The notes under the pieces are model-generated. The model worked only from the letters and a program-made list of their open reading frames with translations, did no database searches and was not told where the DNA came from. The position numbers were made by a program, and so were the translations under genes. 64,000 bases of DNA from Bispira polyomma (lineage: Eukaryota): the NCBI GenBank assembly GCA_965649765.1, contig OZ287748.1, positions 44,020,001 through 44,084,000 on the forward strand. Direction: 5' to 3'. Shown here in pieces: positions 5,139 through 63,460 of this stretch. Numbering within the stretch: the first letter of the stretch is position 1; every line of letters starts with the position of its first letter.

Positions 5139-5196
5139 ATGGAGAAGTTGATAATACATTTGTGTTATATGTTGATTTTGTCGGAATCACTGAAAG
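5139..5196 (+). CDS. Gene A signal-peptide exon
   Basis: tttcag acceptor just upstream (implies a 5' UTR exon), ATG at 5139, hydrophobic 19 codons, phase-1 donor G|gttagt. Confidence 0.7.
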
Positions 5197-8100
5197 GTTA
5201 GTGAATCAAACAAATGTTTATATCTCATCTGTAAAATAACTGAAACACTCAAACAGCTTAAGTTTTAAGTTTAATTCCATTTCTAATGCTATATTGTGCA
5301 CTAATGCACTTTTTTGTGACTGAAATAGGATAATGTTTTATACCACTTTATACCACTTAACCAAATATCTTTCGAAAGAGTGGTGTGATCAATGCTAGAA
5401 ATATATATCAAGTCATTGTAGATGTTTAAAGGCTAGCTGATCTGACAAAAGTGTATTTCAGACAAGAGATTTCCACCGCATGCTGGATCTGTAGTGAGCT
5501 CATACATGATAGGTATAGGAGGAGAAATACAAAGGCTTGAGCAAGTCTAGATCAATCCCTGAGTTGTAAAGTTTTATGGTGTGAGATGTAGGCTATAGAA
5601 ACAGGTGAAAAGTACATTCCAAAATTACATCAAATCTTCAAAACATAATTGTTATTTGGGGAAAATACAATTGTAGTTTGTTTGACCACCTGACTATTTT
5701 ACTGGCATGGTTCCTGTTTTGACATAGTAAACCTTTGGTAAGTTTTAACCAGAAAGTTTTGGAGACAAAGCAAGTATATGTTTTCCAACATGGATCTAAC
5801 TTATTGCACTACACTCACATTTAGTAGATAATGCATTGAATAAGGTTTTCAGTGACAAAAGTAAATCATTTTTATGTTGTAAAATTAACCATATGTTGAG
5901 ATACCACAGATATGACGAGTATTCTTACTATTTTGATATGAATATCTTCTAAATTCACACTTTGCTTTGTAAAATAAACTTATACGTAACTTGTTTAGTT
6001 ACAATACAATTATATAAATGACTCAAACTAAACATATGTATTTTATGTAATGTTATATTATGTATATACTTTTATAAACTAGTATAATGACAAAAGTGAT
6101 AGTACATATTGTATTCATATTTATGTATTTTATAGCATGTGATAAATCTTACTGTGAGTTTACAACAACATACACTAAGGACGTAGGATGGACAAATAAA
6201 GTCATGGAATGTTCTAACGCATCACATGTAATAGAGATTATCACAGTTTTCAAAAGTTGTGACTCTTCTTCTGATGTAACATCTGACCAGCTAAACAGTG
6301 TTAAAAGGTTGTGTAATACACATATCAGATGTGATATTTCTGATGATGGCACTACCACGGTATTAAATAGTACTTGCCAGGATAATGTCCAGAACATTTC
6401 AATACAGTATGCATGTAAGCAAGGTGAGTAGAATCATTAATTTATCTTTTACTTTATCTTAGATTAAGCATGAGCAGCAATACAATATTTTTCAAATAGA
6501 AATTGTCAGAATTATTTGATTATAACGCCACATATATTGCTGTGACGTTTTTGATACTTAAACTATCGGCAGGTATATTGTGCATTCAAACAACAATTTA
6601 TCTAGATGCTTCTAATTATAATGCCGATACTGCAGTGATATTTATTGATGGCATAAAAATTTTTAAAAGCATCTTGAGTCACCAGTGATTAAAATCAGCA
6701 GCACCCAATTAACATGACCATATTTTTCAAATCAAGAAACAATTTTCTTTTTAATTGCTGTTATTTATTAACTAAACACATGTCAGATTTCAAGTGTCGA
6801 TTACATATCAACGCTGAACGGAACACATTAAATGTTGCAAGTAAAATACTTTGTACATGGAATTTTTGTAGGCAGTGCTATAACATTTCAGTAAGTGAGG
6901 ATTATTAGCTCGGTCATAAAAGTTTCAAACTGTTAAAAATATCGCCGAAGATCTGTAATCTATGGCTGCAGCTTGAGGGGAGTTTCTGAATCTTTTCGGG
7001 ATTCATTTGTAAACATATCTAACCAGAAAAAAAACACTCTGTAACAGCTTGTTGTGGTTTGTTTTGCCTTAGTGACCGCTCATCCTGCTTTGTCTGTAAA
7101 TTATACATTGACTACAGCTTGTGAGACTAATGTGGGTATACGCCACAGTGTGTGAGCCTGTTACATGTCGTTTTTAAAACTGTAGTGTAGGTGTTCTTTA
7201 ACAATTTTCATCTGAATTTTGTCACAATATCTTGGAAAAAGACTGCAGTGTACCCAGCAGTTGGACAAAAATTGACACAGCTTTCATTGAACCAGATGGA
7301 TCTTTAGTTTCTTTGTGTATAAAATGCTAACTATTGGTTACCACACGACAGATTATCTCTAAAAGCCTAAATTATTTTAGAGTTGTGTATTTTAAGTCAC
7401 TACAGTGTTAAAACAATTAAAATTATTAACAGGAAAAGGAAGTTACGAGACTTGAATATGATCATGATATGTGCACCTTAGAATCCACCTAGATGGAGAT
7501 TTAGCACTATAAAAGTTTTAATAGATTAAAGGAGATCAACAATACAATTGAAAGCCTTATAGTTCAGATAGATTGAGCCACCATTGGGTGGCAACGTGAT
7601 CTTGCATGCTTGCCATGTAGGGCATCCAAGGTGTGGTGTAAGTTGGATGGAATTAGACCAAGTATTCTGCCACCAATGATGGCTTTTTGAACTGATGTAT
7701 ATGCGATTGGCGACAGAGCGGCTACCATAAACAAAACGTAGAATCTGGTGGAAATAAATATATACCCTCATTCCTTATACATGATATAGTAGCCAATTTT
7801 CTGTTATTTCATGCCGACATGGTACATATCAATTAGTACAAGATAAAAACCACAACCACAAATATTGGCACAATTCCGTTGGCCATTTTACGTCAGGCTA
7901 AATTTACAACATTTTTGTACTAGTTTTCAGGCTGTTCTTTGTTAAAACAATGGCACTCATATGCGTTTCTCAATTTCATTTTTGCTTGTAAATTATACTT
8001 ATTGACCAAATCGCCATGTATGTTTGTAATATGGTCATAAATATTATATACTCTTACAGCATATTTGCTTCATATGTTCTTATCCATATTCTTTCAGAGC

Positions 8101-11100
8101 CACAAAGGATGTGTTCAGCATTTACTGTTTCTTCTACTGAAGCAATTAACTTATATAATCCTAATTCATATGTCCCTTTCTACAAAGACAGACAGCGACA
8201 ATGTCAATGTCTTGTAATTCCTGGGATGCAAAAAAAGCAAGTTAAAATCAAATTGGTACAACTTGTATTAGACAACACATATGAGACACTAGGATTCAGC
8301 GGCTATTTTGACCAAAATAGAACAAAATGGGAGAAAGAATATAACACAATAACCTCAGCCATTGATGAAGTTGTAGTAGATGAAAATATGCTAAATGTAT
8401 CCATAACCTTCACGACATGGGGATATTCATCAAATGGATCATTTTATCTTACTTTGGAAGGTAAGAACCTGTATATTTTGTGTTTACAAATATGTTTTGT
8501 GTCTGTGACAGTTGTAGTACTTGTGAAAATAATTATTTTAACATGACAAATTTAATTAGCTTTAAGAGAAAATCTATCCTGCTAAATTTTCCTTTGAATG
8601 CACCAGACTGCAAAATTGTAAGTTTCATCAAGTTAAAGTTTTTGTCATATATATACCCTTATAATGGATTTCTGTGGCGCTATGGTATATACGTCAGTTC
8701 TCGGGTAGTGTCAGTGTAATATTTAATTTTAATTACAATAATTAGACAGTATTATGTTTTTATGTTTTATAAGGAGACGGTCCTCGAACACTCACTTGCT
8801 ACAATGGATCAATTAATGAACAAGACAGTGAAATCACCACATTTGGAACTGTAAAAAATCAAGATAACCCTCAAACAAGTGAGTCATCTACACAGACAAG
8901 TGCAACTATGTTTTCCCCTACTGCGGATATTTCAGTATCCAATACAGCGAATACACAAACAAGTAATAAACCATCAATATCTATAATATTACCATCTACT
9001 CAAAAATCAACATATTCAGTTTTGTTAAAAGGTACACCTGACTATTTTAGTGACGCTTCTTCAAAGATCGATTCCACTGTGAACCACCATTATTAATTGA
9101 CCTCAACTGAAATATTCAATTCACCTGAAAAAAATAAGTGCACTAACACACGGACAGGTATGTAATATAAGCTAAAGAGGCACAGATATTTGAGTCCATA
9201 GATGAAGTCCTTGTCATGAGATTAGATGTGTTCTCAGCCTTGTCCTATTCTAACTAATTTAGGGGTTTCCTTTTTGTGCAATCTGAAAACTCACGTTTCC
9301 AAGTACTATACAACCAAGTTTTATGCTAATGCCTGTTTAACTCCAAACAATGTTTATATTTTGTGATTTTGTTTTGGGTCTCAGGTATTATTGCAGGGGT
9401 CACTGTGGCTCTCGTCATTGTTTGTCTGATTATCACTGTGGTGATTGTTTGCATCTTTAAAAGGTAAAGTCTGCATACTCTATACAGTGGTAATTAATTT
9501 CATACATAAGGAAAGTGTTCAGAAGTGCTTTTGAATACTTCCAGCCGGGGGATTGCATGTTTGTCTGTGTCCATTGGTTTGTTTTCTACAAGGATTACAA
9601 AAAATCTAATGAGCTGATTTTCATGAAATTTGGTTGTGTGATGGGCCATTTTAGAGCACATCTGGGGTTGTGGTGGTATGTGGAAGTTTGCTCTACTGAG
9701 TACCCGTCTAGTTGTCAATTTATTGAGTTTTGTCATTTTGAATGCAGCTTGTTGGAATCTATATATTAATAATAAGAAGGTGCTGTCATAGATACTTTTA
9801 CATGCATTTCCCAATATAACTGTAGTTTATGGAACATCAGTCAGATAAGCACATTCCTGTTTTCAGATATTTAAATTGATACTGAAAATCTAAAGGTGAT
9901 AAATCAACTAGGTGGTGGTAAAACATTAATAAATGCAATAAGAAAATTTCATTATTTATCCCTACCAGCATATTAGCATGTACCAATTATTCATGTTTTA
10001 CCATGCTTGAGGGTATTTATTTATCTGAAATGTTGTACAAATGATATCTTTGTAAACCTTATGATAAATTGTGAAGATAATTGAAATGTTCATGTATCGC
10101 AAATATATCTAATGATACATCCGCAATCAAAGGATTTATTCATTTTTAAATGTCTGATTAAACCGTAAAATATTTATAATCATCATTTGTCACTGTCTGG
10201 TATGTAATTAATGAACATCAGTCTTAAGTGTATAACATATGGTATTTCTTTTGGATTTAAAGGAAGAAAAAATGTCATAAAAACAAGAAACCAGAGCCTG
10301 TTGAAATGATAAATGGACACAATGCAGACGTTAATGACTTTCATAATTTTCCAAGTGGACCAACAATAGATAAATATTTATTGCCTGTACAGAATCTTAA
10401 CAACAATTCAGATGCTCCTGTTACATCAGTTTCACCTAAGGCATTTCTAACAAAACATACCAAGGCCATACAAGAATCAGATTGTGGTGAAAGTCATACC
10501 AGTGGGTTAAATAACATTTATGGAAGTTCTCAGTCCGGTATAAATGAAGGCACTGATTACGAACCCAGTGGTTTTGGGGCAAATAGCAATACAGAGAAAG
10601 CAAAAGACTTGTATGACCAAGCATTACCTGTAAGTCACAACCCTGAAGCATACATCAGTACTGGCTCTGGTATGGAAGAATCCACCTTTCATAAAGCAAA
10701 TTGTATTAAGGACAGTGACAACATAGAGACAGTTAAGGATATGTATGATGAAGCATTGCCAGCAAGTCACAACCCGGAGGCATATAAACCATCTGTACCA
10801 CAGGCCAAGCCGAGTGACCCCCCATACTTTCTGTATGATGACTCGCACAAGAGACCACCAGCAAAAGAAAACTCAGGTACTGACAATAGCGGGAGCTCTA
10901 GAGAAGCTGTCCTTCATCCCACAATTTTAGACTATACCCAATCTTACCTGAAAACTGAAGGGTCGTCTATAAATACTTTAAAACCTTTGGGAGTCAAAGG
11001 TCAATTACCAAATCTGGGTGATTCCTCACAGAATCTACAAGCCTATTCTTACGCTGACACTAGAGGGCGATTCATTGAAGGTGTTACTCCACATATGAGA

Positions 11101-11490
11101 GGTGAAGGGTATGATGTTGAGAAACATGTTGCACCAACCACTGATGACGGTAAATATGAACCTTTTCAGATTCCAGCTGGGAACGACCATTTAGACCATA
11201 CTGGATCCAGAGGTATTATGGCTCCTTATTCCTATGCTGACTGTGGTGGTGTTAAACCTAAACCAGGGTCAACGAAAGATGTTAAACCGGTCAAGGATCC
11301 TTCTAATGAGCATTATGAATCAATGGGTGTTATATATAACCCTCAGACTATGACGGCTAAGGAAGATATAAGCACCACGGAACCTGCAGCTGAATATGAA
11401 GGAATAACCTTTGTTAAGAATGATGCCAAAAAGCCTGTTATAGTGAATGGAGTAGAACTTTTTGAGAACGATGTGTACAGTAAAGAATAG
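5139..11490 (+). CDS. Gene A: spliced type I receptor (signal peptide, SUEL-like, CUB-like, S/T stalk, TM, Tyr-rich tail). Exons 5139-5196, 6136-6423, 8098-8460, 8774-9031 (or to 9157 with internal stop), 9385-9463, 10263-11490; 757 aa via the 9031 donor
   Basis: All junctions are AG/GT with compatible phases (1,1,1,1,2). Exon 1 MEKLIIHLCYMLILSESLK; TM GIIAGVTVALVIVCLIITVVIVCIF followed by KRKKK; the last exon continues in frame into the 394-aa ORF at 10306. Confidence 0.8.
6136..6423 (+). CDS. Gene A SUEL/Gal_lectin-like exon (divergent)
   Basis: tatag|CA to G|gtgagt; 8 Cys with SUEL-like spacing (MECSN..VIEI, VKRLCNTHIRC, ISIQYAC); no YGR or DPC motif. Confidence 0.7.
8098..8460 (+). CDS. 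Gene A CUB-like exon
   Basis: ctttcag|AG to G|gtaag; C..LYNPNSY..Y....CQCLV....VKIKLVQL and terminal VSITFTT...NGSFYLTLE resemble a CUB domain. Confidence 0.65.
8774..9157 (+). CDS. Gene A S/T-rich stalk exon with in-frame TAA at 9094-9096 and two phase-1 donors (after 9031 and after 9157)
   Basis: ataag|GA acceptor; GDGPRTLTCYNGS..TSESSTQTSATMFSPT.. S/T-rich; donors AAG|gtacac and CAG|gtatgt. Confidence 0.65.
9385..9463 (+). CDS. Gene A transmembrane exon (79 nt)
   Basis: tctcag|GT to AG|gtaaag; 25-residue hydrophobic run. Confidence 0.85.
10263..11490 (+). CDS. Gene A cytoplasmic exon, low-complexity tail with 21 Tyr
   Basis: Open frame of 1228 nt starting with stop-transfer RKKKC; motifs YDQAL/YDEAL, YSYAD x2, YEPF, YESM, YEGI, terminal ENDVYSKE. 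Confidence 0.85.
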
Positions 11491-20704: not shown

Positions 20705-20989
20705 GTATGATAATTGGCCTTGAGTGGTGTGATCTAGATGATGATGTCAGTATTATTTGTACTTCTTCATTAATAAAAGTGACACAAGCGTTCTTTGGCT
20801 ACACAGACAGTTGTGGTAACAGTGAGTACAATGTGAGGCGTGCACAGAATGTGTTACCTTTGCTACAGACTAACTGTGGTGGGTATAAATGTTGTAAAGT
20901 GAAATGGGAGGCTGTAAACTGTACCATGGTCACCTGTGATGGTGAGGAATATTCTGTCAACTACATGAACACTACTTACAGGTGTCGAG
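20705..20989 (+). CDS. Gene B SUEL-like exon
   Basis: ttttag|GT to G|gtaatt; LEWC..IC....IKVTQAFFGY...C....V...LQTNCGGYKCC....C....VNYMNTTYRC. Confidence 0.75.
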
Positions 20990-22366
20990 GTAATTTTTTA
21001 ACATGTGAAATGACAGAATGTATTTAAGACACAACCTAATAAACCTAACCTAAATATAGTGAGTGATGGGTATATTGATATATTTGTCATATTCAAGATA
21101 AGCCCCACTTAACCATTTATCATTTTAAAATTGTTAATGTACCACATATAAACAGAGTAACATTTTAATATTTTTATTATTTAAACACATAAAATTATCT
21201 TATGTCAACTATTGCATGGTGGTCTTTAAAAGATTTTATGTGTTTTTCTAGTTCTACAAATATTCTTAAAACTTTTTGCCAGTTGCATTATATGGAACAT
21301 CTTGAAATATATTCTATCACCTTATATCATTACCAAGAGATGTTATATTAACCTACCTACAGTATGCCTTTTTTAATATACACTTGCTTAAATATTAGTC
21401 AGCTATTTCAATACAAATTACAGATAATACGTGGAATTTATATTTAATTATTTCAGGGACTTCATCATTGACCAGGGGCATTGACACATGTGATGATTAG
21501 ATTATACCAGATACCCCTTTAGTATCAACACAAACACACGTATTATTCTTACTTTTGCTTTTACAATCTATGTGATTAAGAATGATTGGCATCAAGAAGT
21601 GTTTAAACAGTATTCTAGATATGTCTTATGTATCACAAAGTAGCAGCTATATTGGTATGACTGACTCTAACTAAAGGAAATGTTAAATATTGAAACTCAG
21701 TAATACTGCAGTTGTAAGGTATGGATCAGTAATTAATTATCTTTAACATTGCATAGTTTAGATTGTTTTGTAATAGAAATAAGATACATGATACAATAAA
21801 AACCTTATGATTATTCATTATGCTATGCTAACAACCATGTGATAAAATTGATTAGTACTTGACTTATTTTTAAGTATGCCCCTTGTACTAATAACCATAT
21901 CACAAAACTCATCTATACTTGACATATTATTAATCAACATTTCTGTTTACTTCAGGTCGACAACAAATCCCAATGACCAGACTGAGCACATGAACCCCAC
22001 TAGTACATTGTTATCAACTGGCCTGACAGAGGAGATGGAAAATCTAACTCCTTCAACATATTCTTCAGAAAAGTCACTGTCAAACAGCCATGGCTTCGGT
22101 ACAGCTTCAGCTAGTGATGTATCTCAGTACAGAATAAAATGTGAATTTTGTTTCAGTAAAAACGTTGCAAATCATGTTTTAAACTGTCAAAATTACTTTG
22201 CCAGTACAGCCCATTATTTTTATTATTGTACGAGTCAGTATAATTGAATATGTTGCTACAGGGTATTGTGTTTACAATCACACTCTTCTACTGATCAAAT
22301 GAAAAACCTAAATGAGATTACCTGATAGTGTTAACTATTAACTTACATATTCAATATTTATTTCAG

Positions 22367-22454
22367 ATTATACCGCTGTTGCCGGTTTGGGGACTGTGTG
22401 TTTTGCTTTGGTTATTACAATAGTTTTGCTATCTGGATTTATTACCTACAAAAG
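22367..22454 (+). CDS. Gene B transmembrane exon
   Basis: tttcag acceptor, phase 1 to phase 2, ends TACAAAAG|gt like gene D. Confidence 0.7.
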
Positions 22455-23879
22455 GTTTGTATTGTACTTCTTTCACCATTATTTAAAGTATGGTCTGAAT
22501 TTATCTCTAATACTGCATACTGTTATAGTGTATGCTGTGTCGTAAAAGTGACAACATTTTAATTTAACTTGTCTAATTAGCTAGACTCTGCCCTCGGTAA
22601 AGTAGTGAATGATTGGAATAGATAATACCGTCACAAATTGAACATTTTACTTTATTATTGGTTTAAAACTGGTTGAAGTACTTTTAGGAGAACCTAAACG
22701 GACTACATGAAAAATGCCTCTGTTTCAATAAATTTCTTTTTTACAGGGTGGATATTAAAAGAAAATACTTCTTTCAACTGTAGTTTTTCTCTACATGAAA
22801 AAGGCAATTGAATTTGAAATTGGCTAACTACAGTTCTACTTAAGGAGGTTTGACTGTATGTACATGTTGTTGATATAAGCTATGTTATTGTGTTTTAAGG
22901 AAAAGCAATAGAACCAAATACATCGATGCCAGGACTACATAGGACTACAGGACTACATGTTTTTTTGTTATCATGAAAATAATAAGTTGGATTAAATTAC
23001 TTCACACACAATGTATTGCTTTTAAATTTTATATCATTACATTTATTTACCTTTATCTCGCAAGGGCTAGTTAACCTTGATGACTGACAAACTACAGCCA
23101 ACCACATTCACTAACCATCATTTTACTCAATGAACAGAAAAGCTTGAGGATGAATATGTTGCATTGTCCCAAGACTGCAATTTTAATTGATAATTGGACT
23201 CACTATGTATCTGCCTGTATTTTTTTTGTCGGTTCAACCCATTCTGTGCAATCCTAATAAATAATCTATAATCTGGGTATGAAGTCTTTTACAGTCTCTG
23301 ATGATCTTACATTTTTGAAGTCATGTGTGGTCTGACGGAGATCAAAACCTCTGTCTTACACACAAGGCCACAATGGCAGATACATGTGTACTGCCTGATA
23401 TTGTATCTCTGTGCAATACATTTAAAATATTGACTCTTTGGTTGCAGTTACATTTACTGATTCTGATAAAGCTGTTACATATCAAATAATCTATTTTAAA
23501 TAAATATTAAACACGTGTTTCATATGTTGTGGTTTTATGACGCCTTCAACAGCTTATGTCCTTTCATGACAGTCATCCAGTGTATGAATCCAGTGTACAT
23601 CAACTTCTAAGCACTGTGGCCCTTTGAGGACGAAGAATCCTATTATCTATTCTACTGGCTATCTCTATTGCTCTTGAATAAAATTATTTTTAATAATAAA
23701 CTTACATGAAACAAAGTGTTTAAAACGACTCTTAATGGATTAAATACTAAAAAGAGCATTTTCATGTTCATTAAAATCTTGACAAAGTATATAGAATTTT
23801 TTTGAAATTTAACCTATTACGTGAGAGAGAAAGATAATTCTTTCTGTTTGATATAATCAGGACGCTGTTAAAACAATTA

Positions 23880-31909: not shown

Positions 31910-33121
31910 TTAAATCATGTCTCTCTGCCATGGTACAGCACCAACATTATTAAAATAGTGTTTTAAGTATATCCTCTGTCTCTTTTTACCCTACGTGAAA
32001 ACTGTGTAGGACCCCTGACATTCTGGCACTCTGCAAAGACAGCTTCATCTCTCCAGGCTCCAGGAATAATTTGCTGATCGTTTCCCTCATGGTCCATTGC
32101 CGCATTCTGAAATGCTGGATACCAGTTGTGCATTGGATTGTGTAAGCAAAAACACTATTGACTTAACAGTTTCTGACTCTTGTTGAAGAGTAGTCAGCAG
32201 GGCGCGAAACTTATTGGCAAGGATACCAAAGGCATTCTTAACAATCCTTCGAGCACAAGTTAACCTGTAGTAAAATATTCTCTCTTCATCTGTCATATTG
32301 GGTTGGAAGAATGGCTTCATCATGTAGAGGGCCAAATCAAAGGCATCGTCACCAATTAAGATGTAAGGGATGTCCTGAACATCATCTGAAAGTGGCTCAG
32401 TCGATGGTAGACCCAGTGTGTCATTGTCCAGTTTTGTTTTCAGGTCTGAGTTGTTGTAGATGGAACAATCCAATGTTGAAACGTTGACATCGATGTCTAC
32501 AAAGATGAACCAGTAATATGCATCGACCACACCAAGCAGGATAATGGAGAAAAAGCCATTGTAGTTGTAATACAACGAGCCAGAGTTCTAAGGAGCCTTA
32601 ATTACAATGTGTTTCCTGTCAATTGCATCTATAGCATGAGGAAAGTTCTATTTGGTTGCAAATCTGTCAATCACTGCATGCCAGGCATCTGGAGTTGTGG
32701 TGAGATTCACCAACTCGGCACCGTATTCTTCCATTATGGTCTCGCATGTTTCTTTTACAAACACAGAAATTCTGTTGTGGGGCACACTGAAGGCATAGCT
32801 CAGGCTGTGGTAGCTGTTACCCGATGCTAGATATCTCAATGTGATGGCCAACTTCATACCAGGCGGGAGGTCATCCTGTACAGCAACTCTCGGAACATCA
32901 CTGGTTCCATCCTCAGTTAGTTCAGAAAATCAAAATATGATTCTATCTCCAGCTCCACCATAAGTTGTCATATGCATGCACCCGCTGATCCAGGGCCTCA
33001 CTCAGTACTGCCTGTTGCTCCTTCGCCTCCTCCTGAGGTAGGCCAACAACACTAGTCCTGCTGCCTGCCTTCTCGCCGCCATGACTTGACCTACTGCTGG
33101 TGCTGGACCAATAAATGCCAT
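31910..33121 (-). pseudogene. Harbinger (HARBI1-like) DDE transposase, disrupted
   Basis: RRRR..Y*VRPW, KLAITLRYLASGNSY, AIDRKH, YYNYNGFFSIILLGVVDA, IGDDAF, ARRIVKNAFGILANKFR, GAVPWQRDMI*. Confidence 0.9.
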
Positions 33122-35990: not shown

Positions 35991-36278
35991 GTAACATAAT
36001 TAGCAGTCTTGAGTGGTGTGATCCAGATGTTGATATCCATATCACATGTACTTATTCATCAATAGAAGTGGCACAGGCATTCTTTGGCTACACAGACAGT
36101 TGTGGTGAGAGTGAGTTCAGTGTGAGGTGTGCACAGAATGTGTTACCTGTGCTACAGACTAACTGTGATGGGTATTCATCTTGTAAAGTCAAGTGGGAGG
36201 CTGTAAGCTGTAACATGGTCACCTGTTATGATGAGGAATATGCGGTCAACTATATGAACATCACTTACAGGTGTCACG
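35991..36278 (+). CDS. Gene C SUEL-like exon; no own downstream exons found
   Basis: ttttag|GT to G|gtaaca; about 86% nt and 73% aa identical (hand count) to the gene B exon, with similar flanking intron sequence. Confidence 0.75.
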
Positions 36279-38600: not shown

Positions 38601-40027
38601 AAGAGGGGTGACAGATTTAATGTTCAATGGCTGCAATTTTACCACTTAGGTATGCCTGTTAAAAAGAAGTGAACCACTTTACAGTGGTGCTAATAAAACC
38701 ACAATAGAGAGTATAGATAATGATCAAAGGATACTGTAAGATCAAGCGCCAGCCCTTCGGCTATGTGAATTTCAAAATATTCTTTATATATATAAAGGAG
38801 GCCACTCCCAAATTGTGTCGATGGAGTTGTAGGCTGTTTGGTACAGTAATAAATCTAGAGTTCTAGATAGTTTTGTCAGTTATTTTGCTACAAAATTAAC
38901 AGGTAGTTTATATATAAAACTCACATTGGCCATCAGATAGAAAAATGCAAAGGCTAATGGTGAGTTGATAAAGCTTGTGACTGGCTTTATAAGTATTTCC
39001 ATATATTCAGTAATGTAATTCAAAAACTTTAAGAATGATCTAGATCACAGGGTTTTGCAGGTTTTTCTTAATCCTTTTCCATTTATTCTTTTATGTGTAC
39101 CATGAAACTGAACCACTTGTTTGCAATTTGCAAACAGTATGGTTTGATCAAAAACCTGAAAAGAAAATTATTCTGATTTGGGGAAAAACTGAAGCAGAAG
39201 TGTCTTGTAAATTTGTAAGTAGAATGTTATCCAATATAAAAAGCTTAATTAATAAATTCCAATTTGCTCTGAGATTGAAGTAAATCTATGAGTATTGTAC
39301 TGTATAACCAATATTAACATCTTAACAGGTTAATACATACTAATGTGGCTTTCATACACATTTGTCTTGGAACTCATCTACAAACTCAAGTATCTTCAAT
39401 AATAGCAGTCTATTGCTGTCAAGAATATAGGGGAGATTCCAAGTAGATTTTTAAAAGATTTATACACAGGGAAAAAATTATTTACCAAAGAATAAAATCA
39501 AAATGTGTCAAGACTATGTCATAACGTAAAAGGCAGTTCAACACAAGTTTTAGGATCGAGAAACACTGAGAATATATATTATTATGAAGGTGTTTTCTCT
39601 AAAAGTGAACATTTTATATCATTCTGACAAACGTATACCCTCTGCATGAGTTTTTAGGGTGTTTTTCTTGTTTGTTTTATGTTAAGGGGGTACTTCGTCA
39701 AGCAAGTATGAGAAGTAAATCGATTTTAAATATAATAACTAGACTGTTCTAGATCTACATTTTTAATAAAAGGCTCTTGTTTACACCTCCGTGAGCCGTC
39801 ATTGTGAAAGATACACAACAAAACAGGATTAACACTGTGTCTTGTGTACTGAATATTTACCACTACCTCTTTATGTGACTCTACTTCCTCAAAGTAATAT
39901 ATGTATGGTCATTCCTATGGAATCAGGTTTTCCAGAAACTGCTTGGTGATCGTGTATATTTCTTATTTCACAAAGCTAGAATGACCAATTTGACATAATC
40001 ATTTAAAAAATATTTACAATGAAAAAT

Positions 40028-43000
40028 ATGGATAGACAGTTCCTGTGTCTTATTTGTTGCCTATTATTTGGTTTTCTACTTGGTGAGTATTTTTAGTAAA
40101 CAATATATATACTAAAAACACCATATTACTGTCAATACTCAACCTGTTATATAACTTCAGAAAGGTTGTTTACAAAAATATCTTACTTGAGTGGAGAATG
40201 ATTTTACTTTATTTTTTCGCACTGCACCATAGTTTTTATTTATCTGTAGCACCTGATTCAGTAGTAAGACAGGAAAGTTTACAGTCTTGTAAAAAAGAGA
40301 GAACAGGTGATCCAAATCTTATCTGTGCGGGTTTGGGTGCTGTACAAGTAACAACTGCAATGCTAGGTTATAATGAAGGTTGTACGACAATAATGGGAAA
40401 TTATTCATTCCAAAAAGATGTCTCCTTATTATTCCAAAGAACCTGTGATGGATATGGAAATTGTGAAATTACATGGTTCTCTATAGAGTGTCTAACTGAT
40501 TCTTCTACAGAAAATATACTGAACAGTCTTCACATGGTTTTTAACTGTACAGCAAGTAAGTTTTACTTCAGATGCCTTGGTTACGAAATAATGTCCCTGA
40601 TTATAATTATTTTAAAAGTCAAATTTAAGTGGAATACTTTACACTTTTTTTGTGAGCAACAATGATTACATGGTTTTATTAGTACTGGGTTTATGTGTAT
40701 CATACTCTAATTAGGGACATAACTTGTTTCCTAGTGATCAATGGGACAATGCATGCCGCCTTTTTCAGCATATGTAACATCACATACATCCCAGTCGCAG
40801 AAAAAGTGTTAAACACGTCTACTTTAGGAGACTGTTATCCCAGTCCACGTTAAATACAACGCCCTCAATTAAAAAATATGTTTTGCTATCATCAGGGCAT
40901 TTTACCATAGCTACACTAAGGCCAATCACACTGCTGAATTAATTAGCAATTCCCGGTCTTCTTGGGGTTATACCTCCATATTGAAATTAACTTTGAAGAA
41001 GCAACAAGCAGAAATTATTTTAACTTATATGGAAAATCATACAGGTTTTGTTTTTAGTAAATGGTTTTAAACTTTACATTTTATCATTTACCATACTATA
41101 AAGAAGTTGTTATTGGAATTGTGTATGCATATAACGATGAGTAAGATGACTAAAACACCACTACAGACAAAGAAAGCAGTCAACCGTAAGACCAAGGTGT
41201 TGAAAGCTACAAGTGGAACAGATGGGTCACAGGTAACTAATGGTATTGTTCGGGCCCTTCGTAGCCATCTTGGCGAAGTAGATGAACCGTTAACTTGTCC
41301 ACCGAGTGCTGGCTTGTTCCAGGCTGATTCCCAGTTGATACAGCCACCGGTCAATTCAAGACCATTAGTAGATCCACCTAACAAGATGTTAGAAATACTG
41401 AGAAGATTAGAATCTAGGCTTGAAAAAATCGAAGCTAAAATGGTCACGGCTACCAACTCGGTGAGTAGTTCTAGCCAGATCACGAGCAGTACTACACCAC
41501 TAGGACGTGGCGGTCAGACGGCCAATAGTTTACCACTACCTCGGTACACTCCGCCTTCAGAAGTCGGAATCACACAGAAACCACCATTTGGGCCCATGCA
41601 CCATGAATACAACTGGGATGGCATTATTCCCAACTTAGAGATTCTTTGTTCCATGCCTGACGTGGAGTCAGTAGTTACACCCCAATAGGCCAGTTATGAG
41701 TCATTGGCACAAAAGGAACTGTCCAAAGGTAAGCCGAACCAAAGGGTTAAGTCTGGCAGGTTTAATTCTACTGATGTTGCCACAGTTGATCCGAGATACC
41801 GTTGGCCTAACGAGGGTTGTTTAGCAATGAATGTCAGCACTTTCTCTTGTAAACGTCCCGCCTATAATGATCTGTCTCTACCACAATGAGCGGCAGGACA
41901 AATCTCTAACGCACTCCTTGTCACAGATAACAAAGCCATGAGGGACATGATGGCTCAGATAGAATTCGCGCTTCGAGATGCTTTGTTGCTTCCCTGGCCA
42001 GTGGTAAGGACTGTGTGGGCATCAAATATGCACAAGATTGAGGAGGTGCCCTTGATGTGGCAAGATCACACGCAATGGGCGAATTAATTGAGCGTGTCTC
42101 AGTTAGCTATGGTCAACAACCACCATCAGGGTACGTCCAATGTTACAGAACAGAAAACAATATGTAAGCTATTTAATAATGGTAAATGCAGTCACAAAAA
42201 TGATCATGGAAATTATAAGCATCGATGCTGGTACTGTGCCAAAGTTCTAGGGAAGGAATCTGGTCACCCCGAATTTAAATGTTTTAAGGCAAACTCTAGT
42301 AAGCAATCTGACAATCAAAATGTGAAAAGCAGCAGAGACATTCAACAACCAGTTAAGCAGGAAGGAACATTGATAAATACTGTAGATTTGAGAGTAGATG
42401 AAGACAATTCTTTAAGTAAAAACAGTCTAAGTTATGTAGACAAAGACAATTTAAAAAATGATTTGTTATTGAGAGACAATAGGTTTCAGTCAAACTGTAA
42501 TCATAAAACTAATGTGTTGTCAAATGTAATATCTGAAAGCATTTCAGGAAGCACTTATAGCAATGTCGGGTCTGTCCAGAGGTAGCAGCAAATGCTTCCA
42601 TCTACCAGGGTGCAAGGAATGGTCAAGTCGGCCTCAGGGGAGTGTAGCTTAAACTACTGTGAGATAACAGGAAATCATCATGACAAAAATCATACAGGCC
42701 ACATACAGAGTGACCACCCTGAAGGGGGGGCCATCAAGGTAAAACTTAGTGTGACCAATTGGTCTTTACCTGATTTCACCACTGAAAGAAGTTTTCCAAT
42801 TATTCACATAGGGGACCTGCTTATTTTGCAAAGGGGTTTTATTATAGCTACATTGATAATGTCACAGGCTTAGAATGCTACACTCCTCTGGATTTCAAAC
42901 CCAACGGTATGTTGCATATTATTAATGTTTTTGAAATACTGGTCAGTAAAGTCAGTGACATTTATAAAGATTGATGACATTGAATGTATTTCAGCTAAGC

Positions 43001-49000: not shown

Positions 49001-52000
49001 TGATCTGACACAAATTTTCCTGGAACACATTTGAATATTAAGTCACTGTCAAATTTGCTAATTACTGCATCTAATATGTGTCCAGCAACATGAGTATAAA
49101 AACTAACATGTTGTTTATATCCCAGTGAGTTAATTATTTCATTCAGTGTTTCAGTGTCATAGCTTTGCTTGTCATTTAAATGAATGTTGAGGTCACCAAG
49201 AACAATTGAGTTTGTATTGTCTTCTATTGCTAGGTCAGAGAGTTTATCACTGAATTCATTTAGAAAGGTAGCATTTGTTATTGGATGTTTCTTTGAGTAT
49301 GGAGGATGATATATTGCATTTAGCGTGACTACCTTTTGTGGAAGAGAAACCCTCCATTTGGCAAACTGAAATGACTGTAGTTCACACTCATTAAGTTTCT
49401 TAACTCTATACTCTTTCTTATAAATAAGTACCAGACCCCCACCTCTTGATTCTCTGCTAACAGCATCAAGGCAGTATCCACGTTTTGTCAGTTCACAGGT
49501 ACTTATCCAAGCATCCACCTCATCAGTGTTTTTAGCTAGCCAGGTTTCAGTCACAACACACAGATCTATGTTTAAATCATTGATGTATTCTGCGAGTATA
49601 ATATCCTTGTTTTTAATAGACTGGGCATTTATGAGCAGTATACTGATGTTTTCACTGCTATTTTGTCCTGGCTCATTATCTATACATATTTCACATTCTG
49701 ATACAGTAGTTGTATTTGTATCCAGGTATTTCTGTTTATTGCGGTTTTTTCCTGCTCTTTTTCCTCTTTTGTTCAGCCTATTTTTTTCTTATGACTTTTA
49801 CTGTATCCAGTGATAATGACTTTGATGTTGTGCTTGATTGTACTTTTTGTCTAATCTCTAACAAATCAGATTGGTTGTACCGTACATACATTAAAAATGA
49901 ATAGTACAGAGTCTGCTACAGGCTATTGTATTTATCACACAAGTACACATCAATCTCATATGCTTACCACTGCTTATAAACTGGGTTTACACAGAAATAT
50001 TTATCCATTATTTATCTGAAATATCCTTTTTTTGTCTTCTCAAAATTGTATTTACTTTACTCCTGGATCCTTTATGAACACCATATTGTAAAATCATAGG
50101 ATAATGACTAATATTTCCAGTAACAATCAGCTGATTAAGTGATAATTTTCCCAGTGCAGCCACTCAGAGTGCAAGATGGGGGTAAATTCATACATTAATG
50201 GCCTGTTTATAAGCAATAAATGTCGCAACACGAAGAGTTCAATTTCAACCAAAAACACCGTTTATGGGTGGTTTATGGCTGTTTGGAGTTGTCGAAACCC
50301 AAATGTACTTATAAATAGATAGAACACCAATAATGGTTAATAACAATAATACTGATACACTGTTTTAGTTTATAATTTTATTGTGATGGTTGAAATATAC
50401 ACTTTTTGATAGAAATTATGTTAAATGTAATGCAAAGTTTATTTTGCCAATTTTATTGTGTCGTATGAATAGCTATTATGGATGCTATGATGCTATTATT
50501 GTTTTGCCTAGTCCTTTTTTTATTAGGCTTGTCCTGGTTTTATTATTGTTAGCTTTGCCTAGTTGGGGCTGTAAACATTTGTCATGTTTAAATAAAAATT
50601 TTAAGCATTTTACCTTATATGTAATATCATGTACACAAACTACTAACATGTAAAAAATAAATCCTCAAAGTGAAATCTTTTACTATCTCTGTGTTACTGA
50701 ACTTCCACCACAAACTTGCAAATTTGAATTCATAACTTTGACCTTGTATATTAACCTTAACAAAGGGGACTGACAAACAGAGGCAATATATACATCTATT
50801 TTTAAATCACTATTCAGATATACACAGAGGCAATATATACATCTATACTTTTAAATCACTTTTCAGATATACACATCCACAACTAGTTATTAATCAAATA
50901 TGCAATTCTACTGTCTATAAGCAGTTCATGAACCATGATATAAATTGTAGTAACAAGTAGCTGATATATGTGAACATAAGGTATGTGAGGTTCCATTTAT
51001 TCATTATCCACTGTGACATAAGTATAACGTTTTCGTGGCTGATACGGGCCGGGTGATACAATGATCTGTATTAATCGGAGGCCGTGAATGTGTATATGAA
51101 CACTGTAGTATTTACTAGATTTTCCAAGGTTTTATTCTCAATTTAAGCAATATTTAAGGTAGAAAGTTATTAAAAGTGTGACTAAAATAAAATATGGACC
51201 TTAAACAACAGAATTGTCTATTATACTCGATTTTTAGTATTTTATAAATACAAGTTTGAAGCTAATTCTATAAAGTGGCTGTCCCACTATCCCGATAATA
51301 GCTCCTGACTGTCCCGATTGTACAATCAAGAGGCAATCGAGAGAACAATCGGGACATCCAGGAAGTTGTCCCGACTTATTAGTGTCAATCGGGACACTCG
51401 CGGTCACTTGTGCAAATTCCTAACATGTTAGAAAACCTCTACGATTGAATGATATGCAGCCGATCGATCGGGGTCGATCAGGGTTAATCGTTAGCTGCTA
51501 ACGTGTTATCTTAACCTTATAATGACTTATCTTTACGATCGACATCTAAATTGGGAGAAAGAAATTGCCATTTTGAAAAGGAATAATCGTCTAATCCCTC
51601 CTGATAAATCGCAAAGAACCCCCGACTGTAAAGAAGATTTATCGCCCAATCCGTCTCAGTTGGTCGGGATTATCCTCCCGATTGGTCAGGAGCATTACAA
51701 ATAATTGTCTACTTGTCCAGAGTTACCGTGTCATATGTTAACAAGATAAAGATAACTCTGAAAATGTCATGAGGATAAGTCGTTACCAAGTTCCTGATTG
51801 TAAAGATAACTCGAGAGAAGCAGCCAATAAGTCGTTAGGAAGTCCCGACTGTAAAGATAACGAGGATTAACAATAGGTCGGGTGGAATAAAAGATAACTC
51901 GGGAGTGAAAGCGATGACTCGGGAAGCAATGGGAGATAGGAGCAGACTGTTTAAAAGGAAGAAGGCACACTCATTTTTCATCAGAATCATCCTAGCTTTC

Positions 52001-55000: not shown

Positions 55001-57883
55001 GGCATCTGTTGTAACAATTTGAGTGTGTTAAAATCTAGAAACAAACATACAACAAAAACCATCTATAAAACCCGCCAAATTCTATTGGGTTTTGATGTTC
55101 ATCACCAAAGTCAGTAATAGAAGATGCGATTTAAACAAATAGTAATACTAATTTTTTGTTTAGTTTCTTATTTCATTTTACAACAAAAACATAGAAATGA
55201 TTTAGTTAAGTGAGCTATTTTACAGAAGATCTTATCACAGTATTTGCCAAAAGTTTATATAGTCCACATGAGATTTTAGACATTTATATTGTTAAATTTT
55301 ATTATTTTTATGTAGCTGGTCAGAGAACTCGTGATATTACAATAAATATTTGCAGTGACTGGGTCTTCCCAAACACAACACAATCGCCTTCCACTTTGCA
55401 AGCAGCATTAAGCACGTAAGCTATGACCTTATTTTTTGAAGTAAAAATGATCTTTAATATTTATTAATACAAAAATTCTTATTTAATATTACATTGATAT
55501 GATAATAAACTTTTATCTTACATACAAATGTTGTCAATATTCAGTTAAATAACATTTAAATTTGTGGAAGGGCTAAATTTGGTTTTATGTGTCAGTTTCA
55601 TATACCACAGCAAATGTAAAAATCGCTTTTGTTTAACTCTTCAAACTCATTTTTGGTTACTAATTTTATTGATAGCAAATCTACTGTAATTCATAAATAA
55701 TGCATCAATGGCTGTGAAAAATAGTTGTTGAAATTTTATAGAATTATAATTCCGAACAAACAATATGCGAAAAGCATCTTGCTTATTTACTGATATGTTT
55801 TTATTATTTTATTACATATTTGCTCTTAATTACAGATTCACTTCAAGTATAGTAGCTTCGATTGGTGTTGATACATCACCATTCATGAAATTTTATAGAA
55901 TTTATAATATGATGCTTTGATCATTCTTAAGTGGCCATGTGAGCAAATTCAGCCAGCTCAGTTACTTTAATATGCTTTCCTATACAATTTCTCTCAATTA
56001 CAGAGTCACTTCACACACGACCGAAAATTTCATGTCCACAATTGTCAACACAAGAAAATAATTTTAATTTATCTTAGTATAGTACATTAACTACTTTAAC
56101 TGGCGTTTATATGCTTATAATTAATATTTTCATTATATCCTTGCTCTCAATTTACAGATTCACTTTAAGCACAAAAGAGAAAGCAATGACCACATTATCA
56201 ACTAATTTGGATACATCAAAGTATAGCACTGCAACTCCTTCAATTGACTTTGATACATCACCATTCAGTTTAAATCAAACAGGTTCTAAACTGTCAACTG
56301 CTGAAACATCAACATTTACACATACACCTGGTGGCAGTACTGACCAATCAGCCTCTTACACCATTCCTCATGTGGCAAATAAAGAAAAAGGTATATATTA
56401 CATTTGTGTAATAAGATTTTTATACTAATGTAAAGTTAATAACTTTAAATACTTTGTACCAAACTATGACTTACACATTTTGTTTGAATAGTCTAATCTA
56501 ACCTAGCCTTTTTTGCATTAAATCCTCTGGGAGAACTCAAAGCGCGAGAACATCCCAATCATAGGTAAAATAATAGGCATTAATAAGAGGTCATCAATAA
56601 AGGACAAGCATTTAGCCAAAGAAAAAGGGAACTATATTACAAAGGCTTTGTTTAAAAGATAAGATTTAAGATGTTTTCTAAAACGTTGCAATGTTCTTTG
56701 TTGTTCTGATATGTTATAGAGATTATTCATGAAATTGGCACTATGCATTCCATCAGGTCATGACGCATTCTGCTTATACTGTTGATATGACGAAATATAT
56801 GCATTTACACTTCAGGAGTCCATATCTCAATTTGTTTAAAGATGTTTTATTCCACAAAAAGTAAAAGAAACCTTTTTTAAATATTCTTTATGTATAAAAA
56901 TCACTGTACCGAATTATCAATAGTGAAGCATTTAGCATATTTTAAATGTTGTGTGCTTCAATAAAATACAATGAACTTAGTTTTAACTGGATTCAGATGC
57001 AAATCATTTGACGCCATCTACTCCAAAGATATTGCCTATAATAATCATCTGTTGAGTAGCTTAAAATTCCAGCTGTATATAATGGTATTTGAATGCTACA
57101 CACTACTGTCTCATCATTTGTAAAGTAGATTACATTAGTGTAAATACATTAAATCAGATATAGAGAAACATGTGATGTGATAAAATACTCAATGACTAAG
57201 TGTCTGTCTCTAGCTCTAGGAGAGTTATTTCTACACTGTTGTTTAATGTCATATGCAATAATGTTTAGGTGTTATAGCTGGTGTTGTATCCTGTGTGATA
57301 CTGTTGCTGATATGTTTTGCAACTGGAGCAGCCTACTGGTACAAAAGGTATACTCCTTACAACTCATTTATAACAAGATAGGGGATCAGTCATTCATTAA
57401 GATATGAAGGAAAATATTTGATTAAGATATCTGTCTTTAAGTATTTAGAGCACACATTATTTTAGCAAATGTAAATTAATGCTAATAAATAGGCAATCAA
57501 GATTATGTTGTTTTTTAAGGCGACAGAAAAAGAACAGCCCACAAGAACATACATATGAAAACTCATCTGCTCCAAGCATAGAGGTGACCAGTTTTGATAC
57601 AGTTAAACATTCAAGTGAACTTGCAGATATAACATCAACATGCATTGGCAGACCAAATGAGACTGCAGAAGCTAAGAAGGATGGAGAGTATGATGATATC
57701 TGGATACATCATGCCGAAGAAGCACCAACAAGAACCAATGGAATTGTTCCAGAAAATAATGCTGAAGAATCAGTTGTGAAAAACATTGAAGGTCACTATG
57801 CTCCTCTAATAACATATGAAAATGTACCCAGAAATACACAAGATAACATTTTAACCAGTGAGTATCAGATGTTGAAAAAATAG
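40028..57883 (+). CDS. Gene D: intact type I receptor (signal, SUEL-like, linker, S/T stalk, TM, ITIM-bearing tail), 378 aa. Exons 40028-40082, 40250-40555, 55316-55415, 56158-56390, 57269-57347, 57520-57883
   Basis: Six AG/GT exons, phases 1,1,2,1,2, total 1137 nt with no internal stop. Signal MDRQFLCLICCLLFGFLL; TM GVIAGVVSCVILLLICFATGAAYWY then KRRQKK. Confidence 0.8.
40250..40555 (+). CDS. Gene D SUEL-like exon
   Basis: gtag|CA to A|gtaagt; SC..LIC....VQVTTAMLGY...C....DVSLLFQRTCDGYGNC....C....NSLHMVFNC. Confidence 0.75.
40969..45500 (+). mobile_element. Ngaro/DIRS-type tyrosine-recombinase retrotransposon (gag-like, RT, RNase H, truncated YR) with direct repeats
   Basis: Direct repeat of about 57 bp at 40969-41026 and 45371-45427; gag Zn finger CKLFNNGKC..HRCWYC..HPEFKC; RT FKIDIARAFRNL and GYIDD; RNase H LDACLT, HLEML, NCDNM, HIPGKKNVIADALSRL; YR start ALRPKKTTAY, and FFGFLRLS. 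Confidence 0.85.
46731..49700 (-). mobile_element. L2/CR1-group LINE, near-complete ORF2 (APE plus RT) with few frameshifts and a (TTATG)n 3' tail
   Basis: INAQSIKNK, VTETWL, VLGDLNIH, VSDHRAV, NYRPVSNL, INLSAAFDTVDH, VPQGSCAGP, YADD, LHWLP; cataa repeats at 46731-46750. Confidence 0.92.
50776..50874. repeat. Tandem duplication of about 48 bp
   Basis: acagaggcaatatatacatctat..ttttaaatcact.ttcagatatacac occurs twice. Confidence 0.85.
51274..53060 (+). mobile_element. Left half of a second PIF/Harbinger family element with a decayed Myb/SANT-like gene (52105 to about 53050)
   Basis: Left end taaagtggctgtcccactatcccgat; many cccga/atcg subterminal motifs; LTDEQEKAVVD and a KSGQAA.ELTKRQQWL block matching the 28943 gene. 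Confidence 0.7.
53442..53520. repeat. Direct duplication gtggtcacaccactgacagggtttgaaccca
   Basis: Two exact 31-bp copies about 48 bp apart. Confidence 0.85.
57269..57347 (+). CDS. Gene D transmembrane exon (79 nt)
   Basis: tttag|GT to AG|gtatac; same length, phases and G-x-IAGV start as the gene A TM exon. Confidence 0.85.
57520..57883 (+). CDS. Gene D cytoplasmic exon with YENS, YDDI, YAPL, ITYENV and SEYQML
   Basis: ttttaag|G phase-2 acceptor; open to TAG at 57881-57883. Confidence 0.85.
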
Positions 57884-62060: not shown

Positions 62061-63460
62061 TAATGTATCATTGTATTCGATTTACTTTATTTTGACCTTC
62101 TGTCTATGGTCGTAACACAAGGCCTTTTTTAAACACATAGGAATATCACTATTACCCTAATCAAGGACTTCAATACTACCAAAACCATGACTTGTAGTAC
62201 ACGTTCTTTGAACCATTGTTATTACATATACTCACTTGAGTTGTACCGTTATAAACTTTAGGCACACTAAACATAACAGGTTAAACCTGCTGATCCATAT
62301 TTTTGTCCTTATTATAACGCACTTGCAGAAAGGGTTCCTTTTCCTAGTTTCCTTGAAACAATAGGTATTGTAATGCTCCAACTTGGTGCCCTTAATAATA
62401 TAGTCATTAATTTTTGTTAATTCATTATTGTACATTAAGCAAACTCTGACTTTGGCGTTGGAGCTACTTTTTGGTATACTTAGCACTAACCAATATGTCA
62501 TTTCTCCATTTCTTGGAGAACAGCATTAGCTTTCTTGGCTGTATTATAACCAATATCTACTGCATCTTGCATCAAGCTGTCAAAATAATGGAACATGACA
62601 TATTTAAGCTCAATGTTAATGCACATCCAATAAGACCTTGTAACCACTGAACAGGTGACATCTCATCACATTGGGCTTTTATTACTATCTGCCACAGTAC
62701 AGTTATCACATAATAATCATGACAAACCTGTTGTTCCCTCTAAAATGATGAATGTTGAAAGAAATCATAAAATGGAAGACATTGTTGATCCAGAAGTTAC
62801 CCATCTTAACTATGTTGAATCATATGCAAAGACAAAAATGGAGATAAATAACAAGGGCAAGCCTTCAGTAAAATTAAACCAGAAAAGCAAAGTGCCAATA
62901 TGAGGAAAAATGAAGAAGAATATGATTATGCTGAGATGAGAGTAAGGCAGGACGCAGTAAAGGTGTCTACTGAAGATCAAAAAGACAAAATGGACTCAGA
63001 TATTGACAATGTTGAAAAGATGAAGTCTTAGATTCTGAATATGCTTTTCAGTTTTCAGTTATTTCAGTATTCTGTAAACATTAAAGCTAATCAATCGTTT
63101 GAATGTGTGAAAAATATTATGTTACATATTTAGCGATGACAAAAATATTACTTATCATTATTAGTACTTTTTCAAGTCAAACTATTTAATGAAACAGCCA
63201 ATACCAATTTTTTAGAAAATTTGAATTAAGGCATATGCTTATCAAATGCATTTCATTTTTTTCTACAGTGACTTCACAGCAATTAATTAAGTTTCAATGG
63301 AAATTGTATGATTTGAGGACTACAATAGTTCAATTGAGAGTAATGTTTTTTGGATTAACCATTTTGAAAAGGCAGTTTTTCAGTTCTGGGGTGGTATTTT
63401 GACACTGAACCCCAATGATTACTTGGCGTGGCCATTTTGACACCAACAAGAATTAGCCTA

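Follow-up and report, generated by a model that had tools for sequence, protein, structure and literature searches.

A twin-tyrosine tail in a predicted receptor gene of a tandem lectin-like gene cluster from the annelid Bispira polyomma

Here, we describe gene D, a predicted intact single-pass (type I) receptor gene in a 64,000-nucleotide stretch of the Bispira polyomma genome (GenBank assembly GCA_965649765.1; contig OZ287748.1, here C1, positions 44,020,001 to 44,084,000), which we call the window. Gene D belongs to a tandem gene family, and we consider it probable, at roughly 0.6, that lectin-like modules of this family have been recombined onto short and long cytoplasmic tails and that the short tail serves as a phosphotyrosine docking platform centered on a twin-tyrosine site. 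The block that holds the two tyrosines, Y93 and Y99, is under purifying selection among paralogs. Paired receptors have mostly been described in vertebrates, with immunoglobulin (Ig)-type candidates in Hydractinia and Botryllus. If our reading is true, an annelid cluster with paired logic on another scaffold would point to a tyrosine-motif signaling module that is ancient or was co-opted repeatedly, combined with ectodomains that can be exchanged.

Results

The gene D model comprises 381 amino acids (aa) in six exons, with GT-AG at all junctions and without an internal stop, laid out as a signal peptide, a domain resembling the SUEL/rhamnose-binding lectin (RBL) family, a mucin stalk, one transmembrane (TM) segment, and a 120-aa tail (Table 1). 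All six exons are in frame, at 78 to 91% nucleotide (nt) identity to a duplicate, D'. The second intron measures 14.8 kb and its counterpart in D' ∼0.5 kb; this short intron at the equivalent place supports joining gene D across the long one. Exactly five tyrosines lie in the tail, their motifs all in one forward-strand frame, where the initial annotation had placed them. The motifs that it listed for neighboring gene A also share one forward-strand frame (YSYAD at 11044 and 11227, YESM at 11314, and YEGI at 11395; span 11044-11406).

Selection was measured with a codon model (GY94, F3x4) in purpose-written code rather than PAML. Of the 15 D-type tails, two with frameshifts were left out; all counts of tails below refer to the 13 that were used, which are paralogs, not orthologs. 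The ratio of nonsynonymous to synonymous rates (omega) is 0.58 over the tail as a whole (P = 3e-4 against 1). Tyrosine codons stand at 0.15 versus 0.60 elsewhere (P = 0.011), the lowest of 16 residue classes, and only 1.7% of random five-column sets were equally low. Together with the type I model, this bears out the earlier view of D as a receptor with meaningful tail tyrosines. By hexamer, omega is 0.51 around Y12, 0.49 around Y57, 0.15 around Y93, 0.18 around Y99, and 1.0 around Y115. The best 15-codon window begins at H92, with omega 0.13 versus 0.65 (permutation P = 0.002), and gives 0.09 versus 0.67 in five intact or near-intact genes. Comparison of M2a with M1a on the D tails yielded a likelihood ratio (LR) of 2.0.

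More eye-catching than this block are two matches to an ITIM (immunoreceptor tyrosine-based inhibitory motif), given as (S/I/V/L)xYxx(I/V/L) in PMC8631942, at ITYENV and SEYQML. Over 100,000 shuffles of the tail, P was 0.012 for at least two ITIM matches (shuffled mean, 0.18), 0.002 for at least four Yxx[ILV], and 0.055 for at least two YxN; the D tail contains no immunoreceptor tyrosine-based activation motif (ITAM). For a single tail, this exceeds chance by a modest margin, before any correction for how many genes a scan covers. That all five tyrosines sit in motif contexts is true and, because the motif classes are short, weak alone.

The initial annotation had read the two ITIMs as the mark of an inhibitory-type receptor; as such, they find no support in the paralogs. 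At Y99, the −2 residue is Ile in D only and Thr in all 12 other tails (TTYENI/V/K), 11 of which carry an ITSM (immunoreceptor tyrosine-based switch motif; TxYxxV/I as described in PMC8631942). Asn at +2 is invariant at both Y12 and Y99. Eight of the 13 tails have Ser two residues before Y115. Two strict ITIMs occur in only two tails, and at least two ITIM/ITSM-type sites occur in 10. ITYENV reads as a change private to D at what is an ITSM/YxN site in the family; the Y115 site appears to conserve just its Tyr and Leu. Because the −2 positions are unconstrained (omega 0.57 versus 0.58), ITYENV is private to D, and the SEYQML hexamer has an omega near 1, the ITIM matches are not singled out by selection. 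The case is a caution for motif scanning, since selection maintains the twin-tyrosine block and not the ITIM matches nearby. The two matches lie 16 residues apart, and Y93 lies 22 residues from Y115; the +1 residue is Glu or Gln at the two ITIM matches and Ala at Y93, which, however, has Gly at −2.

We surveyed C1:43.36-44.22 Mb in its entirety plus 40-kb flanks, within a genome of 1.04 Gb. More than 20 tandem relatives make up the cluster, their outer domains alike but joined to differing inner tails. The D tail gave 17 matches at 15 loci, all within C1:43.44-44.14 Mb (∼0.7 Mb), the A tail was found at 5 loci, and all 23 matches to the second, CUB-like domain of gene A fall inside the cluster; exon queries had no further matches in the 40-kb flanks. 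Proximal loci, labeled G1 to G18 in order, mostly read signal, lectin-like, CUB-like, stalk, and TM exons, followed by a short D-type or a 408-aa A-type tail. The distal part consists of B, C, D, and the duplicates B', C', D', and D'', without a CUB-like exon. Behind D'', C', and one broken locus lies a tail of yet another class (E), the third, which is also long. Thirteen genes were modeled end to end, seven of them stop-free (G5, G8, G14, G17, D, D', and D'') and six broken (G1, G2, G6, G10, G13, and A), and the other loci were judged from exon matches. G14 was counted as stop-free with its acceptor shifted 9 nt downstream: in the related G2, G11, and G14, the AG at the TM exon is lost, and an AG 9 nt downstream preserves the frame (C1:43,762,805; 43,478,545; 43,880,574).

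Both ectodomain families of the cluster occur on short and on long tails. The lectin exons of G14, which has a short tail, and G17, which has a long one, are 98.6% identical in nt, the median being 80%. Their shared tract of ∼14.5 kb takes in upstream DNA, the signal exon, and the lectin exon at mostly 91 to 97%, after which identity falls to 78 to 82%; the CUB-like exon of G14 is 96% identical to that of G2. Trees that unite the A-tail genes in a single clade are rejected for the lectin (approximately unbiased [AU] test, P = 9e-8) and for the CUB-like domain (P = 3e-10) and again without G17 (P = 0.014 and 3e-8). D'' has a stop-free 641-aa model that combines a lectin of the D family (80% nt) with an unrelated TM segment and a 357-aa tail. 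These patterns show the same ectodomain families on different tails, probably through recombination. G14 and G17, with a near-same lectin on different tails, form a clean natural experiment, and D and D'' do likewise, more loosely.

The long tails have constraints and motifs of their own. In the A tails, omega from Tyr to +3 is 0.28 versus 0.56, YESM is present in four of four, and none of the four has an ITIM, ITSM, or ITAM. The E tail carries YDAP three times and YxxM once, along with a single ITIM match.

Gene A had been proposed as the partner of D. The two do not form a pair, because their lectin domains are only 13% identical in aa, their architectures differ (a CUB-like exon in A, none in D), and an in-frame TAA precedes the TM exon of A. 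The resemblance to paired receptors holds instead at the level of the cluster, in G14/G17, in D/D'', and in lectin diversification, and comes without an ITAM or charged-TM partner. Assembly error was rejected as the source of the TAA, which is unchanged in contigs of three of three DNA runs (at most two samples); this check covered the gene A stop. Unless a possible cryptic donor, the in-frame GT at 9032, lets splicing skip the stop, gene A is a pseudogene or codes for a secreted form. Upstream of its signal exon, at window 4545-4587, lies a 43-nt exact copy of part of its lectin exon.

Among 17 cluster lectin exons, 15 match Pfam PF02140 at E ≤ 1; the gene D exon is not one of them and has no match. 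The lectins of genes A, B, and C score 14 to 27 bits, under the curated cutoff of 31.4. A profile of the cluster lectins matched a single PDB entry, a rhamnose-binding lectin (E = 3.5e-7). For the D lectin, the top Atlas matches are SUEL at 0.94, a weak result with recognition below the Atlas threshold, and its AlphaFold model (pLDDT 40) is uninformative. The residue after the first Cys (register read by eye) is Lys in D and Asp or Tyr in the B and C types, not Glu, and the DPC loop is absent from all 17 exons. This Glu and the DPC loop are tied to sugar binding in RBL domains, as described in PMC2430599. D has neither, so a protein ligand would be more likely than a sugar; the ligand of D is probably a protein or surface.

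Evidence that the second domain of the A-type ectodomain is CUB-like is weak: 11 exons gave no Pfam CUB match, the structural model (pLDDT 56) reached Z scores of 7 to 8.4 to GOLD and CUB chains (weak), and the top Atlas matches were CUB at 0.94, with recognition under the threshold (weak). The lectins of the lectin-CUB family are under diversifying selection. In 12 exons, M2a is preferred over M1a with an LR of 44.7, and 17% of sites have omega 3.7; none of 15 simulations with one recombination breakpoint reached that LR (maximum, 17.2), and 2 of the 15 exceeded the 5% line. For the CUB-like exon, the LR of 15.2 lies inside this simulated range, and positive selection is not claimed there.

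Ortholog searches were negative for the D tail at E ≤ 0.1 (a tail alignment against longer proteins and a weak negative), for the CUB-like profile at E ≤ 0.001 among 1.84 billion representatives (weak negative), and for the E-type tail at E ≤ 0.01 (weak negative). The literature searched, which included few subscription journals and no supplements, listed no annelid receptor family that joins SUEL or SUEL-CUB domains to tyrosine motifs. The receptor family thus far appears to be lineage-restricted and amplified, with kinase-less, tyrosine-rich tails. Matches to the SUEL family number at least 150 across the genome; many of them stand in further tandem arrays (C2:98.68-98.91; C4:13.9-14.0, 36.9, 88.2-88.3, and 99.3-99.4 Mb), and these arrays may hold similar systems.

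Candidate signaling partners are encoded elsewhere in the genome. Tandem SH2 exons at C3:64.047-64.048 Mb have PTPN11 as their best match, and 20 kb downstream the same strand carries a protein tyrosine phosphatase (PTP) exon; the genome encodes an SHP2-like tandem-SH2 phosphatase. A SHIP-like SH2 exon is present on C10, and there are also Syk-like and Frk-like (Src-family-like) SH2 exons. Grb2 is assumed to be present. Clustered PTP exons at C9:45.3-46.0 and 59.9-62.5 Mb and at C5:20.6-22.5 Mb suggest amplified PTP genes.

Discussion

Phosphotyrosine-dependent SH2 docking by the short tail of D is likely, judging from its pattern of constraint. In the mechanism that we propose, a ligand would cluster receptor D and a Src-family kinase would phosphorylate its tail. 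Phosphorylated Y99 (T/I-x-Y-E-N-I/V-P) and Y12 would then bind Grb2-type SH2 domains, and SHP2 could be held bivalently through phosphorylated Y93 or Y99 plus the terminal Y115. Where a long-tail gene bears a similar ectodomain, the same recognition event would reach other adaptors by way of YxxM and YDxP-type sites. By analogy with vertebrate paired receptors, the most likely role would be recognition of variable non-self or allo-self surfaces. A further step, which we put forward only tentatively, is that the annelid independently built a paired-receptor system from SUEL-like and CUB-like domains, in which positively selected lectin modules and their promoters recombine between SHP2-recruiting short tails and long tails of the PI3K/adaptor type; a single specificity would then exist in both an inhibitory and an activating form, with no Ig domain, ITAM, or charged-TM adaptor involved. 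We have filed the cluster neither as ITIM receptors nor as a paired-receptor family because the ITIMs are not conserved and an ITAM or charged-TM partner was not found.

D could instead be a classical inhibitory receptor, with tandem ITIM/ITSM sites that recruit SHP2 or SHIP and damp activation and with the long-tail genes as activating counterparts. This account partly overlaps with the docking proposal, and we regard it as possible though doubtful. It can draw on the ITIM matches of D and the 10 tails with two ITIM/ITSM-type sites, on A tails that lack both motifs yet keep YxxM, on the SHP2- and SHIP-like genes, and on an oyster two-ITIM receptor reported to act through SHIP2 (PMC11841013). 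The spacing between Y93 and Y115 is near the ∼25 residues that separate SHP-binding tyrosines in PD-1/BTLA, and Ala at +1 of Y93 favors the N-terminal SH2 domain (nSH2) of SHP1, which is described as preferring medium non-polar residues there (PMC8631942). The same source, however, describes Glu or Gln at +1, as found at both ITIM matches, as poor for SHP1. The free −2 positions, the unconstrained last hexamer, and the rarity of two strict ITIMs also speak against this account, and the invariant Asn at +2 points to Grb2. Moreover, an ITIM match is present in the long E tail as well, and there is no ITAM or charged-TM partner to inhibit.

The same receptors might have a non-immune role in gamete recognition, adhesion, or neural wiring, like SUEL- or CUB-bearing proteins elsewhere, which we consider unlikely. 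Positive selection occurs in reproductive proteins too, and the altered sugar-binding residues of the cluster lectins would suit such a role, but birth-and-death evolution, many pseudogenes, and tail exchange are more typical of immune clusters, and guidance receptors are usually conserved, whereas no orthologs were found here (weak negatives). Very improbable is a scavenging receptor whose tail tyrosines serve chiefly endocytosis or sorting (Yxx-hydrophobic signals) and not SH2 binding; four Yxx[ILV] sites, one at the extreme C terminus, and a mucin stalk would fit, but invariant Asn at +2 of two sites and Thr at −2 and Pro at +4 of Y99 are SH2-type preferences that sorting does not need. For the RBL domains of transmembrane latrophilin and EVA-1, binding of non-carbohydrate ligands has been argued (PMC2430599), in line with a non-immune function. 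D may also be an unexpressed recent duplicate whose motifs are conserved through shared ancestry only, and this we judge quite improbable. Many neighbors are broken, and the D segment (window 37890-59330) starts within the intron of gene C, which matches C' to 37888 and then D' upstream DNA. The second intron of D contains retrotransposon remains (window 41071-49788), with reverse transcriptase (RVT_1) at 43745 and 47487 and an endonuclease at 48523, and the terminal branch of D has an omega of 0.63, indistinguishable from neutral (P = 0.36). A neutral 1.1-kb coding sequence would, however, often be broken at the distance that separates D from D', and constraint is concentrated in one block.

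The retrotransposon remains and the terminal branch weigh against the docking proposal as well, and so do several further findings. Eight of the 13 tails tested for selection belong to genes broken elsewhere, and with just 7 of 13 modeled genes stop-free, much of the cluster has decayed. The test for diversifying selection covered the lectin-CUB family, and the lectin family of D itself (three copies) has an omega of 0.59. By eye, no Grb2 SH2 was recognized among 38 SH2 and 30 of 81 SH3 matches. No ITAM occurs in 13 tails of D type, 4 of A type, 1 of E type, and 1 of F type, and two TM exons among 26, each from a broken gene, encode a charged residue, so that the unbroken genes include no marked activating partner. 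The G14/G17 tract spans promoter and introns and resembles unequal crossing-over, so selection to keep ligand binding matched is not required to account for it. Finally, the resemblance of the D block to the docking site of MET was judged by eye with a spacer one residue shorter and is an analogy, not homology. In MET (Y1349/Y1356), two close tyrosines near the C terminus, the first after His and the second in T-Y-x-N-V, form a site described as binding GRB2, p85, PLCgamma, SHP-2, and SHIP (PMC5344233). D has no kinase domain, and its two tyrosines lie 6 residues apart, those of MET 7.

Latrophilin and EVA-1 are few and conserved, unlike the apparently lineage-restricted and amplified cluster family with its kinase-less tails. 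Like it, they are membrane proteins whose N-terminal domain is SUEL/RBL-like and has changes at the residues for sugar binding (PMC2430599). Paired receptors of vertebrates (KLRC/NKG2, Ly49, PIR, CEACAM1/3, and Xenopus ceacam) are alike in their tandem clusters, fast-evolving ligand-binding exons, similar ectodomains on different tails, and recombination among members, as described in PMC3210942 and PMC5112662. They differ from the Bispira cluster, which has SUEL-like and CUB-like domains in place of Ig or C-type lectin domains, neither ITAMs nor charged TM segments, and an exchanged tract that covers promoter and introns and not one exon; conversion in Xenopus ceacam pairs is described as exon-restricted (PMC5112662). 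Among invertebrates, Hydractinia Alr and the Botryllus fester co-receptors (FcoR) are also clusters of single-pass receptors with pseudogenes, several tail classes, ITIM-type and core Yxx[ILV] motifs, and SHP, SHIP, and Syk homologs in the host (PMC9546547, PMC12065747). As described there, they are Ig-superfamily members tied to a mapped allorecognition locus and include ITAM or hemITAM tails, whereas the cluster has no Ig domain or ITAM. The spiralian GRC and PTC2 clusters of Biomphalaria likewise contain hyperdiverse single-pass TM genes; these were defined by resistance mapping and allelic diversity, and the likeness is one of description (PMC7494358).

Additional features of the region

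Coordinates of gene D, its tail motifs, and the other genes of the window are collected in Table 1.

Table 1. Features of the 64,000-nt window, in window positions
Feature	Position	Strand	Remarks
Gene D exon 1, predicted signal peptide	40019..40082	+	ATG, hydrophobic stretch, GT donor, phase 1; matching exons in D', D''
Gene D exon 2, divergent SUEL/RBL-like domain	40250..40555	+	Family-level resemblance
Gene D exon 3, stalk	55316..55415	+	AG/GT, phase 1 to 2; 85-87% nt kept in D', D''
Gene D exon 4, Ser/Thr-rich mucin-like stalk	56158..56390	+	AG/GT, phase 2 to 1
Gene D exon 5, single uncharged TM helix	57269..57347	+	79 nt; most TM exons of A type, and those of D type, have the same size and phase
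Gene D exon 6, cytoplasmic tail of 120 aa, containing five Tyr	57520..57883	+	Phase-2 terminal exon, AG acceptor, TAG stop
HTYENS, Y12 site, YxN	57548-57565	+	Asn+2 in 13/13 tails, Tyr in 12/13
EYDDI, Y57 site, acidic YxxI/V	57686-57700	+	Tyr in 12/13 tails (one deletion)
HYAPL, Y93 site	57794-57808	+	Part of twin-tyrosine block
ITYENV, Y99 site	57809-57826	+	Part of twin-tyrosine block
Twin-tyrosine block Y93+Y99, HYAPL-(T/I)TYEN(I/V)PRN, ITSM-like and YxN	57794..57838	+	Both Tyr invariant in 13/13 tails
SEYQML, Y115 site, terminal YxxL	57857-57874	+	Strict ITIM consensus in 7/13 tails; Tyr, Leu each in 12/13
Gene A, whole	5139..11490	+	Model
Gene A signal	5139-5196	+	Model
Gene A lectin	6136-6423	+	Model
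Gene A CUB-like	8098-8460	+	Fold search and Atlas, both weak
Gene A stalk, in-frame TAA at 9094-9096	8774-9157	+	Model
Gene A TM	9385-9463	+	Model
Gene A 408-aa long tail	10263-11490	+	Model
Gene B: lectin, stalk, TM, 14-aa tail	20705..22945	+	Without detected signal exon or stalk donor; model not closed
Gene C: lone lectin exon, TM missing	35991..36278	+	Intron becomes D upstream segment at ∼37890
Long (E-type) tail exon remnant after D	62712..63048	+	86% nt to tail behind C paralog C'

Upstream of the cluster, at C1:43,413,814-43,416,046, lies a single-pass gene (L010) with a 308-aa tyrosine-rich terminal open reading frame that contains two YxN and a YxxM; its tail is related to none of the three classes D, A, and E, and its ectodomain was not found. 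A strongly divergent lectin exon (L069, C1:44,001,727-44,002,038) stands ahead of the broken gene G18. Between genes B and C, at window 32087-32929, there is a DDE_Tnp_4 fragment.

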